DNA of 64,000 bases from Dictyostelium discoideum (Eukaryota): assembly GCA_000004695.1 (NCBI GenBank), contig CM000150.2:4640001-4704000 (forward strand), written 5' to 3'. The position numbers and the translations under genes were made by a program. The notes below the pieces were generated by a model. That model worked only from the letters and a program-made list of their open reading frames with translations. It searched no databases and was not told where the DNA came from. Shown here piece by piece: positions 1,717 through 26,147 of the stretch (positions within the stretch are counted from its first letter, which is position 1; every line of letters begins with the position of its first letter).

Positions 1717-3879
1717 ATGAAAACAAATTTCACACCACCATCAAAAATAATTAAAAAGAATATATTTGATTTAACATTTACAATTAATAGTTTACCAACA
1801 CATTTAATTAGAAAGATATTATCATATTATTATAATCACTGTTTATCAATGTATGAGTATATTGAAAAGAGTAAAGGTAGTCAATTCTCAGGATATAAAT
1901 TAAGATTTCGTTGGATGGATTTATGTTTAGTTTGTAAATTTTGGATGGAAATGGTTATGCCGTACCTACCGAATACATTCTATTTTATGGATTCTCAGCA
2001 AAAGTTGGAAACCTATTTAAATCTATGTGAATATGGTGGCACGTTTCCAAGACGTTATTTAAAGCAAACTGTACTTCGTGTATCAAAACCACCAGCTTCA
2101 ATAAAGAAATACCCATTCCACATAAACTCGCTAGCAATTTATATCAATCGTTATCAAATGCCAAATCATTATCAGCCAGATACAATCATACCAGAATTTA
2201 TCTATCAACAAATCTTAAAGATATCACCAGACTTGAAGAATCTTAAATTTCAAACTGCAAAAACTGAAAAAGATTTATACTACCTATTGAAATCAATTAA
2301 TGAATCTATAACTCAATCGATTACACCATTACTATCATCATTGAATTTCGATTATTCAATATTTTCAGCCTCAATGCTTTATCAACTTTGTAAAATAATA
2401 GAATCACCAAATTGTACTATTACAAATCTATCATTAAACAATTGCACTTTGTCAACCAATTCATTAGGTGAATTTAGTGATGGCATCATTGATGATGGTG
2501 ATGATGATACAAAAGTTTCATTCATTACATCATTTAAAAAGAATAAATCAATTACAACTTTAAAAATGAATGAAAATAATTTCTTTACAAATTCAAAATC
2601 ATCAAAGAATAGAATTTTAATGGGTGGCACAATTTTACAATTTTTAAAATTGGTTTTAGTAGATTCAACTTCAATTTCAAATTTTCAATTCAATGGTAGT
2701 GAAATATTTTTAGATGAATTAAATAATGAATGTAATAAAATCAATTATCTAACACCAATGCAATCATCATTTGAAAAACTATCATTATCCCTATTGAATA
2801 TTGATAGTTTCTTACCATATTTAGAATATTTAATCACTAGTTCAAGTAATAGTATTAAAGAATTGGATCTTTCTCATTCAAGATTTTCAAATTATTCAAA
2901 TTTAAATAATTTATTAATTTCAATTCAACATTGTCAATCATTATTAAAATTAAATTTATCATCTTCTTCATTTAATATAATTGAAAATTCAAATAATAAT
3001 AATAATAATGTTGGTTTTATTCAACATCCTCAACCACAACAACCACCATTACCACCACAACAACAACAAGATTTTAATGGAAATGGTGGTGATGATGATG
3101 AATTTTTTGATGAAAATGGTGGTGGTGGTTTTGGTGGTAATAATTTTGATGCAAATTCAACAAATGCTTTTAATGAAAATTTTAATGATCAAACTTTATT
3201 TAATAGATCACCAATTGGTTGGGAAAGATTTAGTTTTTTATATGGTACACAATCGTTGATTTCAATTAATTTATCATCGATTAGAATGAGAGATGAAAAA
3301 GAGATGAACTCATTATTTCAATCATTGTGTGGTTCACCTCAAATTCAACAACTATATTTGAATAGATGTGGTTTAACAAGTGGTTGTTTAACTCAATTAA
3401 CCAATTTCATTAGACAACCAAATTCAAAGTTAGAGCTATTACATATTGGTAGTAATGGATTGGGTGGTGGTGGCTCGTCAATTCAAATTCTATTAATGGC
3501 ATTTCAATTAAATAAATCATTAAGTGATATCGATTTATCCTATAATAGTATGACTGATATAGAGGGTTATCATATTGCAAACTTTTTAAAATCAAATGTA
3601 TATGGTGATAAACAACAAATTAGACATTTAAATCTTTCTGGTAGTAGTTTTAAATTGGGTGCAATCAATCAATTGGGTCATGCTCTAATGACCAATAATT
3701 CTTTGGTCTCTTTAAACCTTTCAAATATTCAAATGGGTATGTTGGAAATTACCTATATCTTTGATGCTTTGGTCTCTCATCCAACTATCTCTTTATTAAA
3801 TCTTTCAAATGTTGGTTCAAATGAAATGATTACTTCTTTAGTTCAAACTTCTGCTTTGCGTTGTAATGTAATTTATTAA
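1717..3879 (+). CDS. F-box / leucine-rich-repeat (RNI-like LRR) protein, single exon, 720 aa.
   Basis: The N-terminus LPTHLIRKILSYYY...WMDLCLVCKFWMEMV fits the F-box consensus (LP..i...IL..L, VCK.W). The C-terminal half has repeated LxxLxLSxN/LxLxxN units (LNLSGSSFKLGAINQLGHALMTNNSLVSLNLSNIQMG, LLNLSNVGSNEM) like ribonuclease-inhibitor-type LRRs. Low-complexity N/Q/G inserts are typical of Dictyostelium. The sequence is a long ORF with A-rich flanks. Confidence 0.75.
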   Translation: MKTNFTPPSKIIKKNIFDLTFTINSLPTHLIRKILSYYYNHCLSMYEYIEKSKGSQFSGYKLRFRWMDLCLVCKFWMEMVMPYLPNTFYFMDSQQKLETYLNLCEYGGTFPRRYLKQTVLRVSKPPASIKKYPFHINSLAIYINRYQMPNHYQPDTIIPEFIYQQILKISPDLKNLKFQTAKTEKDLYYLLKSINESITQSITPLLSSLNFDYSIFSASMLYQLCKIIESPNCTITNLSLNNCTLSTNSLGEFSDGIIDDGDDDTKVSFITSFKKNKSITTLKMNENNFFTNSKSSKNRILMGGTILQFLKLVLVDSTSISNFQFNGSEIFLDELNNECNKINYLTPMQSSFEKLSLSLLNIDSFLPYLEYLITSSSNSIKELDLSHSRFSNYSNLNNLLISIQHCQSLLKLNLSSSSFNIIENSNNNNNNVGFIQHPQPQQPPLPPQQQQDFNGNGGDDDEFFDENGGGGFGGNNFDANSTNAFNENFNDQTLFNRSPIGWERFSFLYGTQSLISINLSSIRMRDEKEMNSLFQSLCGSPQIQQLYLNRCGLTSGCLTQLTNFIRQPNSKLELLHIGSNGLGGGGSSIQILLMAFQLNKSLSDIDLSYNSMTDIEGYHIANFLKSNVYGDKQQIRHLNLSGSSFKLGAINQLGHALMTNNSLVSLNLSNIQMGMLEITYIFDALVSHPTISLLNLSNVGSNEMITSLVQTSALRCNVIY

Positions 3880-4151
3880 AAAAAATAAAAATAAAAAATA
3901 AAATTTTAAAAAAAAAAATAAATAAATAAATAAATAATAAAATAAATAAATAAATAATAAAATAAAATAATAATAAAAATCAAATAATCATTTTTTAAAA
4001 TCCTGGAAAAAAAAAAAAAAAAAAAAAAAAATAAATAAAAAAAAAAATGTCACCCCAATTTTTCACCATGATTTTAACCTCTAAATAAAATTTTCAAAGA
4101 AAAATGCCAAAATTAATCAACCTGGTCCTCCCAGATAATTTATTTAGAATG

Positions 4152-20212: not shown

Positions 20213-20875
20213 TTAGTATAAAAAAAAAAAGAAATAATAAAATTGAATATAATTACCATTTTGTGAATTTTGAATACGCTTTAGTTCTGATTTGGTTGCG
20301 TTATGATGCTTTGAACAACATTGTTGCGAATCTTCATTGTCATCATGTTCATGATGACCATCAGTATTACAACATCCCTTATGTTCGTGTTGGTGATGCT
20401 CATGCTCATGCTCATGCTCATGATCATTGTCATTGTCATGTTTTTCGTTGTGTGTTTCATCTTCATCAGCATCATCATCACTTTCGTCGGTATCACTATC
20501 TAAATCTTTCTCCGATACAATAGTATAGGTTTTATTTGGTACCAAATCATAATTATTATCCTCATCTGGGAAGTATTCTTCACCATTTCCGTCTACAACG
20601 ATGAGACCTCCTTCAGTTTGAAATAAATCATCCAATATATCTTTGGTTGAATATTTTTTGGCCAATCTTAATTCTCCATAACCTTTTTTTAAAATTGTAT
20701 AAATAATAATAAAAAAAAAGAAAAAAAATAAAAAAAGAAAATAGTTAATAAAAATGATATTGTTTTTTTTTTTTTTTTTAATATTCTATTACTTACCCAA
20801 ACTTGTGAAATGAATAATTTCATTGTTGATGTTGTTGTTATTGTTGTTGTTTGAAGAAGAAATTGAAGTTGTCAT
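20213..20875 (-). CDS. Acidic, His/Glu/Asp-rich protein with HEHEHEHEHHQHEH and CC motifs. Two-exon model: 20875..20797 and 20682..20213.
   Basis: Exon 1 starts at ATG 20875 and encodes [26 protein letters not shown], ending at a GTAAGT donor (20796..20791) in phase 1. The acceptor aaaaaaAG sits at 20684-20683. Exon 2 encodes GYGELRLAKKYSTKDILDDLFQTEGGLIVVDGNGEEYFPDEDNNYDLVPNKTYTIVSEKDLDSDTDESDDDADEDETHNEKHDNDNDHEHEHEHEHHQHEHKGCCNTDGHHEHDDNEDSQQCCSKHH.... The long ORF itself lacks an ATG (it begins at TTG), which supports the upstream exon. The C-terminal end (..GNYIQFYYFFFFLY) is doubtful; a GTAATT donor at about 20277 could terminate the protein earlier. Confidence 0.5.
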
Positions 20876-21546: not shown

Positions 21547-22128
21547 TCAAAAATTATTTAATATTGTTTTCTCAATTGTTTGTAAATCTGATCCAGCTTT
21601 AGTTTGGCAAAAATACAAAAATTAAAAATTAAAAATTAAAAAAATAAAAAAATATGGGGTTAATAAATAAATAGATAAATAAATAAAAAAAATAAAAAAC
21701 CAAATACATACAATACTCTGATATTTTAGAACCATTTTTTAAAAAAATGAAATGAAGAACGGTGGATAACTTTGAAATCAATGGATGAATCAAACTTTGG
21801 ATATCTACTTTTAAGAAATTAACTGTTGGATATTGTTCACTTAATTTTGAAAAAGGTTGTGAAATCATTCTACATAACTATTAATAATATTAAAATTAAT
21901 ACAAAAAAATATTTAAGTTGCACTTTAATATTAAATTTAAAACATAATTGCCTGGATTTTTTTTTTTTTTTAAAAAAAAAATACTATTATTATAAAAAAA
22001 AAAAAAAAAAAAAAAAAATATTTATAATACTTACATTTTAATGAACTGTAAAATACAAAAACATATATAGACCTGTTTAGATAAAAGTCTAATTCTTGAG
22101 ATGAATTTATAATTATTACTTTTTCCAT
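21547..22128 (-). CDS. Thioredoxin-like protein of about 95 aa with an apparently degenerate active site. Three-exon model: 22128..22057, 21877..21712, 21596..21547. Only the middle exon appears in the ORF track.
   Basis: The assembled protein is MEKVIIINSSQELDFYLNRSIYVF | LCRMISQPFSKLSEQYPTVNFLKVDIQSLIHPLISKLSTVLHFIFLKNGSKISEY | SGSDLQTIEKTILNNF*. It parallels the thioredoxin layout (V.HV.S.EELD.YL...VVVDF...WCGPCR.ISPVFEKLS.EF..F.FLHVDID......I......PTF.FY.NGSKVSEFSGA....L..TLEA) across its whole length. The WCGPC region is reduced to LC and the PTF motif to LHF. The exon 2 donor is GTATGT (21711..21706, phase 1). The exon 3 acceptor is ctaaAG (21598-21597). The exon 1 donor is a weak GTATTT, and the alternative GTAAGT at 22031..22026 is out of phase, so the exon 1/2 junction is uncertain. 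Confidence 0.5.

Positions 22129-22404: not shown

Positions 22405-26147
<3,743 letters not shown>

Follow-up and report, generated by a model that had tools for sequence, protein, structure and literature searches.

The window analysed here, a stretch of 64,000 nucleotides from chromosome 1 of Dictyostelium discoideum AX4 with about 22% G+C and short, AT-rich introns, contains a spliced gene of the thioredoxin (Trx) fold on the minus strand at 22128-21547. Its presence had been predicted from the letters alone and is borne out by its exons, its profile match and its homology. The gene is not unannotated, as had been assumed: the locus is already on record as DDB_G0270780 (XP_646717, Q55BW4), a hypothetical protein of 139 aa. 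This deposited model reads into the low-complexity intron and leaves out the conserved last exon, and the deposited 139-aa AX4 protein has no match in Pfam. A literature search returned nothing relevant on DDB_G0270780, nor on micro-exons or introns of Dictyostelium thioredoxin genes. The gene is adjoined by importin-4 (22405-24666, minus strand), a large ORF that is 99% identical to D. discoideum importin-4. Another ORF on the same strand (20213-20665) begins with MAKKYSTKDILDDLF, continues with a low-complexity stretch rich in His, Asp and Glu (HEHEHEHEHHQHEH...CC...), and is probably the first exon of an OGFOD2-like gene. An OGFOD2-like gene follows the Trx-like gene in all related genomes, and the corresponding site of D. 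firmibasis has no such neighbour.

Orthologous loci were taken from seven further genomes, located via the importin-4 neighbour or the ortholog protein, giving eight genomes with AX4. The compared set consists of the D. discoideum assemblies FIR and FIW, the D. cf. discoideum assemblies FIY and FIZ, two D. citrinum strains and D. dimigraforme; FIR and FIW, which are labelled D. discoideum, are about as distant from AX4 as the assemblies labelled D. cf. discoideum. A homolog search with the spliced product returned two proteins only, DDB_G0270780 of AX4 and a 112-aa protein of D. citrinum, with zero matches among Logan-derived proteins. For the splice models, every combination of GT and AG sites that leaves the frame open was enumerated. 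The features of the AX4 locus are the following:

22035-22128, minus strand: exon 1, 94 nt, encoding MEKVIIINSSQELDFYLNRSIYVFVFYSSLK and ending with the first base (T) of the first active-site Cys codon
22029-22034, minus strand: 5' splice site of intron 1, canonical GTAAGT, phase 1; kept in seven of the eight genomes, deleted in FIZ
21947-21953, minus strand: acceptor AG (21953-21952) with the micro-exon remnant (21951-21947), GCAAT in AX4 and GCAAA or GTAAA in the seven others
21941-21946, minus strand: destroyed donor of the micro-exon, TATGTT in AX4 against GTATGT or GTAAGT in all other genomes
21938-21943, minus strand: weak cryptic donor GTTTTA, the only in-frame micro-exon route in AX4 (8-nt exon 21951-21944, C-N-Y-L-C)
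21712-21877, minus strand: exon 3, 166 nt (exon 2 of the original prediction), encoding LCRMISQPFSKLSEQYPTVNFLKVDIQSLIHPLISKLSTVLHFIFLKNGSKISEY, plus T
21779-21781, minus strand: AX4-specific TTG (Leu) at a conserved Ser (TCN in the other genomes)
21755-21757, minus strand: cis-proline position, CTT (Leu) in AX4 and CCT (Pro) in all seven other genomes
21597-21711, minus strand: last intron, 115 nt, GTATGT...AAG, phase 1 in a Ser codon, with a position and phase common to genuine trx genes
21547-21596, minus strand: exon 4 (exon 3 of the original prediction), encoding (S)GSDLQTIEKTILNNF, followed by the TGA stop

The second and third of the three exons originally predicted (21877-21712 and 21596-21547, with a GTATGT donor and an aag acceptor) were reproduced exactly, as was the 95-aa translation, and both exons are kept as coding sequence in the seven other genomes. 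What does not stand is the junction 22057|21877 between the first two: its GTATTT donor is missing in D. citrinum and D. dimigraforme, and purifying selection on the coding frame extends 22 bases beyond it, through VFYSS[L/I]K to the conserved GTAAGT at 22034. The exon 1 frame, with synonymous changes up to AAR T|GTAAGT, is found in seven of the eight genomes, this part being lost in FIZ, and genuine Dictyostelium trx genes have their TGG T|GTAAGT boundary at the same place and in the same phase. At the start of exon 3, the variants TTA/CTA and TGT/TGC of the Leu-Cys codons are likewise synonymous. In D. dimigraforme (L004, ~7981) and FIZ (L008), the last intron of the Trx-like gene begins with GC rather than GT (TATT|GCATGT) and is probably of the GC-AG type.

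With exon 1 ending in phase 1 and exon 3 beginning in phase 0, an insert of 3n+2 nucleotides is required between them, and the sole conserved candidate for this insert is a 5-nt micro-exon (21951-21947) that the three-exon model had overlooked. Seven of the eight genomes have ag|G[C/T]AAA|GTA[T/A]GT at this place, which restores the frame, and this pattern is kept in D. dimigraforme although the flanking intron cannot be aligned. The 13-nt pattern AGGYAAAGTAWGT occurs neither in the 64-kb AX4 window nor in 100 shuffles. In four genomes (FIR, FIY, D. citrinum and D. dimigraforme), inclusion of the micro-exon gives a clean coding sequence of 104-106 aa whose introns measure 61-263 nt; L010, the other D. 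citrinum strain, shows the same structure when read by eye. When the micro-exon is skipped, a stop follows within 2-13 codons in every genome. Five genomes encode K-C-K-L-C and one, the second D. citrinum strain, encodes K-C-K-Q-C, while FIZ is without the part of exon 1 that gives the first Cys. K-C-K-L-C is collinear with W-C-G-P-C, with zero indels. From the conservation of the 5-nt exon and its homology with trx genes, we infer that it is spliced in. Two candidate models with a 28-nt exon were rejected, because D. dimigraforme and the second D. citrinum strain conserve only the first 5 nt and the donor: Model C (GTAAGT, 28-nt exon, tgtag|A), which reaches only 18 bits with Pfam, and Model D (GTATTA, 28-nt exon, tag|TTATGT, giving CKQLCFKFNIKLC), which was dropped despite its collinearity with the deposited D. 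citrinum protein.

The dN/dS of the gene lies between 0.13 and 0.29 (ω of 0.10-0.29 for exon 1 and 0.15-0.23 for exons 3-4, each in its own frame), with ω values of 0.05-0.10 for the adjacent importin-4 control; it should be noted that these are rough estimates, based on the Nei-Gojobori method applied to ~310 nt in an AT-biased genome. Purifying selection on exons 3-4 is reflected in Fisher p values from 1e-4 to 9e-8. As a separate observation, the between-species dS is 0.54-0.76 for the Trx-like gene and 0.35-0.44 for importin-4, a difference of ~1.5-2x. Both active-site cysteines are invariant in the intact orthologs despite synonymous TGT/TGC changes. With both cysteines under purifying selection, the intact orthologs would have retained a thiol-based CxxC function, with the protein working by dithiol/disulfide chemistry or possibly by metal binding. 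The original prediction was thus right in that the canonical WCGPC is missing, there being no CGPC at this locus and CKLC or CKQC in the orthologs. It was mistaken in supposing that the gene lineage had lost its CxxC, since the intact orthologs encode K-C-K-L-C under purifying selection. It had offered two alternatives, a wrong exon 1/2 junction or a redox-inactive pseudo-enzyme, of which the first proved true. The second failed, because the gene family kept the CxxC motif and the problem of AX4 is a lost donor, not a stable single-Cys protein. A different exon 1 restoring CGPC, which had also been envisaged, does not exist; the motif that is restored is CKLC.

The micro-exon has a precedent in the genuine Dictyostelium trx genes. 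In these genes, exon 1 ends with TGG T|GTAAGT and the next long exon starts with ag|CCA TGT AGA (P-C-R); the GT GGT needed for the cDNA-verified W-C-G-P-C is present only as ag|GTG|gtatgt plus ag|GT|gtatgt, in two independent genes. These micro-exons of 3 nt (GTG) and 2 nt (GT) sit between introns of ~90-120 nt, and are located at ~1687-1689 and ~1810-1811 in L002 (gene at 1501-2184) and at ~2185-2187 and ~2308-2309 in L009 (gene at 2001-2716). Our literature search found no paper on the 3 + 2 nt micro-exons of Dictyostelium trx genes. Four deposited automated trx models (P0004, P0007, P0008 and P0009) miss both micro-exons and so come out without CGPC. Directly downstream of the intact L009 gene lies a tandem trx pseudogene (3228-3920) with an in-frame TAA at codon 11 and with the acceptor of the first micro-exon changed from ag to gg; the deposited 149-aa P0004 fuses parts of the intact gene and of this pseudogene.

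An architecture of two phase-1 introns with 5 nt supplied by one or more micro-exons is shared by the trx gene of L002, the first gene of L009 and the orthologs of DDB_G0270780. The gene described here resembles Trx1 and Trx3 (trxA/trxC; THIO1_DICDI, DDB_G0294489) in several aspects: ~40% identity over the full length, which agrees with the predicted relation to the Dictyostelium trx paralogs; the same length class of 104-106 aa; the same Trx fold with an active site built through micro-exons; and phase-1 introns that interrupt the first active-site Cys codon and the Ser codon of E[FY]-S-G. Because all intron positions are shared, the gene is best seen as a DNA-level duplicate of the trx genes. 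It differs from Trx1 and Trx3 in having K-C-K-L-C (or CKQC) for W-C-G-P-C and Phe or Val for the buried Asp of VVVDF, in using a single 5-nt micro-exon where theirs are of 3 nt and 2 nt, and in evolving faster, being confined to a few sister species and being disabled in several strains including AX4.

The intact orthologs, in the CKLC model, score 33.9-39.3 bits with Pfam Thioredoxin (PF00085; gathering cut-off 23.5 bits), and the alignment passes through the active site. The deposited D. citrinum model scores 28.3 bits, and the AX4 models are borderline, with 22.9 bits for the 95-aa product, which is below the cut-off, and 25.8 bits for both the 101-aa and the 105-aa product. A phmmer search against PDB chains matched human, insect and reconstructed ancestral thioredoxins with E values of 1e-9 to 1e-8. 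AlphaFold2 gives the deposited D. citrinum ortholog a confident Trx fold (pLDDT 88.9, pTM 0.83), with a central β-sheet flanked by helices and the CxxC starting helix 2; the only weak block, residues 31-40, corresponds to the extra residues of that deposited model. The top Foldseek matches of this structure are all thioredoxins (TM 0.83-0.88), as the original prediction of a Trx fold had led one to expect. The best matches in both sequence and fold are human TXN (1ERT/3M9J), Drosophila Trx (1XWA) and LECA Trx (2YOI). These solved cytosolic thioredoxins and the family of the gene alike have the CxxC at the N-terminal end of helix 2, facing the cis-Pro loop, but none of the solved proteins has CKLC or CKQC.

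Outside the clade, an exhaustive HMMER search found no close relative, only generic thioredoxins of at most 40% identity, and neither CKLC nor CKQC was present in any of the 148 representatives that came nearest in a set of 1.8 billion proteins. In place of the buried Asp (Asp26 in E. coli numbering), which helps to deprotonate the second Cys, every ortholog has Phe or Val by alignment (VFVFY against VVVDF). With other residues in place of the Trp, the Gly-Pro and the buried Asp, the protein probably differs from thioredoxin in its redox properties. Among atypical Trx-like proteins, TRP14/TXNDC17 (CPDC), nucleoredoxin (CPPC) and atypical plant Trx have the Trx fold and retain the dithiol, and the altered dipeptide of these families changes the redox potential and the substrate range. 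The gene is like these proteins in keeping the dithiol with an altered dipeptide, and unlike them in its origin: it has no specific sequence relationship to them and is a recent, lineage-specific Dictyostelium trx offshoot.

Taken together, these data point to the reading that we prefer and consider likely, namely that the gene is a CKLC paralog of thioredoxin, restricted to one clade, whose AX4 copy is in decay. DDB_G0270780 would be a divergent, young trx duplicate present only in the group of D. discoideum, D. citrinum and D. dimigraforme. In its intact form it would have four exons, the first of which stops one base into the codon of the first active-site Cys; the micro-exon G[C/T]AAA would complete this Cys and add a Lys, exon 3 would open with Leu-Cys, and exon 4 would provide the C-terminal helix. 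The predicted intact product is a Trx-fold protein of 104-106 aa with K-C-K-L-C at the W-C-G-P-C site and with the cis-Pro kept. In AX4, destruction of the donor would prevent inclusion of the micro-exon through the conserved sites, resulting in a frameshift between exon 1 and exon 3.

The alignment of the eight genomes shows that AX4 alone reads tccag|GCAAT·TATGT at 21951-21941, the G of the donor being gone. With the conserved splice sites, exon 1 of AX4 joins exon 3 out of frame (MEKV...SSLKFM*), with a stop after 33 codons, and a two-Cys CxxC is not obtained. The coding exons themselves have no frameshift and no stop. There are only ~5 AX4-specific substitutions, three synonymous and two non-synonymous, and both of the latter affect conserved residues. 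The cis-proline (Pro76 in E. coli numbering, before strand β4) is Pro in the seven other genomes and Leu in AX4. The replacement of the cis-Pro motif had thus been read correctly for AX4, but it is not a loss of the lineage. These AX4 lesions, which come from one reference assembly, suggest that the AX4 allele is probably a recently inactivated pseudogene, and the inactivation, if real, would be very recent. The allele resembles unitary or polymorphic pseudogenes that arise by splice-site loss, in that a required GT donor is lost, a premature stop would follow from canonical splicing, and other strains have null lesions of independent origin; it differs from them in that an in-frame cryptic route exists.

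This cryptic route is the basis of the first alternative, according to which the AX4 allele has kept a function. Splicing at GTTTTA, which lies 3 nt downstream of the lost donor, would define an 8-nt micro-exon and yield a 105-aa protein with C-N-Y-L-C (CxxxC) and with Leu for the cis-Pro, i.e., a remodelled and probably redox-impaired Trx-like protein; the junctions expected in AX4 transcripts would be ...AAAT|GCAATTAT|TTATGT.... The 8-nt exon holds the frame exactly, its product scores above the Pfam cut-off, and the absence of stops and frameshifts from the AX4 exons would be in line with it. However, GTTTTA deviates from GTAAGT and GTATGT, one or the other of which is found at all remaining donors in this gene and in the trx genes examined, the cis-Pro that has been lost is the most conserved fold residue in alignments A3 and A4, and null lesions in two other strains show that the gene is dispensable. 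We therefore regard this alternative as unlikely. A broader version would be that micro-exons of 2-5 nt build the CxxC, that inclusion of the 5-nt exon acts as an all-or-none switch, and that the AX4 allele is not dead but either makes a re-spliced CxxxC protein of the Trx fold that lacks the cis-Pro or uses regulated skipping; this strikes us as a speculative and rather doubtful idea.

It could also be argued that the AX4 reference is wrong at 21947/21946, and perhaps at 21756, and that real AX4 cells have an intact CKLC gene, with GCAAAGTATGT at 21951-21941 and CCT at 21757-21755. The region is extremely AT-rich and adjoins long homopolymers, and the lesions come from a single assembly. Such an error is nevertheless improbable, because it would have to account for three separate AX4-specific changes (AG>T, CCT>CTT and TCN>TTG) in a non-homopolymer context, and the deposited AX4 protein reflects the identical sequence.

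The remaining alternatives concern the gene model itself. In a three-exon model of 101 aa, a GTATTA donor at 22030 is joined to the second AG (tgtag|A, 21870/21869) to give SSLKCKMISQPF, a single-Cys product whose active site is shorter by 3 residues. Its frame is open, the AG and the GTAT are conserved, the sites exist in both AX4 and D. citrinum, and the equivalent D. citrinum product reaches 30.5 bits. It is very improbable all the same: the weak donor overlaps a perfect GTAAGT, the first AG has to be skipped, both substitutions in the 8 nt that it treats as intron (TTA/CTA and TGT/TGC) are synonymous in the Leu-Cys frame, the conserved micro-exon is left unexplained, and the score is below that of the CKLC model in every species.

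The three-exon, 95-aa model, i.e., a stable, redox-inactive, single-Cys pseudo-enzyme spliced at 22057|21877, has an open frame and an alignment to Trx that sets in at the second Cys, but we give it hardly any credence. Besides depending on a donor that D. citrinum and D. dimigraforme do not have and removing 22 nt that evolve as coding sequence, it cuts out most of strand β1 and the active-site loop, has the lowest Pfam score among the models that join exon 3 at 21877, and bypasses the canonical GTAAGT, which is homologous to that of the trx intron.

It is equally far-fetched that the deposited models are correct, even though they are public annotations and the D. citrinum micro-exon begins at the same acceptor: the 139-aa dictyBase model fails for the reasons given above (no Pfam match, translated low-complexity intron, omission of the conserved last exon), and the 26-nt micro-exon of D. 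citrinum (CKVC-FTYIK-LC) has no counterpart in D. dimigraforme, requires a 42-nt intron when the other introns of intact copies are 61-263 nt, reads CKVCFTYIKLC in one D. citrinum strain and CKVSFTYIIQC in the other, and adds 7 residues that are the sole low-confidence part of the AlphaFold model. The Cys->Ser change within this exon in the second strain corresponds to GTATGT>GTAAGT, a better donor. Both deposited D. citrinum entries, ACTFIU_009296 (L001, 6001-6564) and ACTFIV_000088 (L010, 1501-2050), use the 26-nt exon with the 42-nt intron and contain the 7 spurious residues.

The preferred reading of a CKLC paralog in decay can be extended to the other strains. Intact copies are found in FIR, FIY, D. 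citrinum and D. dimigraforme. In FIW, the exons have suffered two deletions of 1 nt each, and FIZ lacks the 3' half of exon 1 along with the donor that follows it. The FIW and FIZ lesions could in principle be assembly errors, but the adjoining 3.3-kb importin-4 coding sequence is intact in both. In D. firmibasis, no Trx-like copy is present at the corresponding site beside importin-4 (L003, 6826-8250), which indicates a local rearrangement or loss; this site holds a different gene, with a BP74_N domain (L003, 7246-8009). Given the lesions in FIW and FIZ and the absence in D. firmibasis, the gene looks dispensable elsewhere in the complex.

In summary, the gene family is a known one and no new class of mechanism is opened by the gene described here. 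Three public gene models are corrected, those of AX4 DDB_G0270780 and of both D. citrinum entries. The by-product of most interest is the 5-nt micro-exon together with the 3 + 2 nt micro-exons of the canonical trx genes: annotation pipelines repeatedly mis-build Dictyostelium thioredoxin genes, whose active-site Cys-Gly or Cys-Lys sits on micro-exons of 2-5 nt. If AX4 did make a re-spliced protein or skip the micro-exon in a regulated way, the locus would be a natural experiment in the remodelling of a redox site by splice-site drift. If the copy of AX4, the laboratory reference, is broken as we propose, a knockout in AX4-derived strains would be uninformative, and the gene should therefore be studied in intact wild strains. 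The locus would then represent a small and young Trx offshoot with an unusual CKLC motif that has been under selection in some lineages and has been broken independently in others, including AX4.
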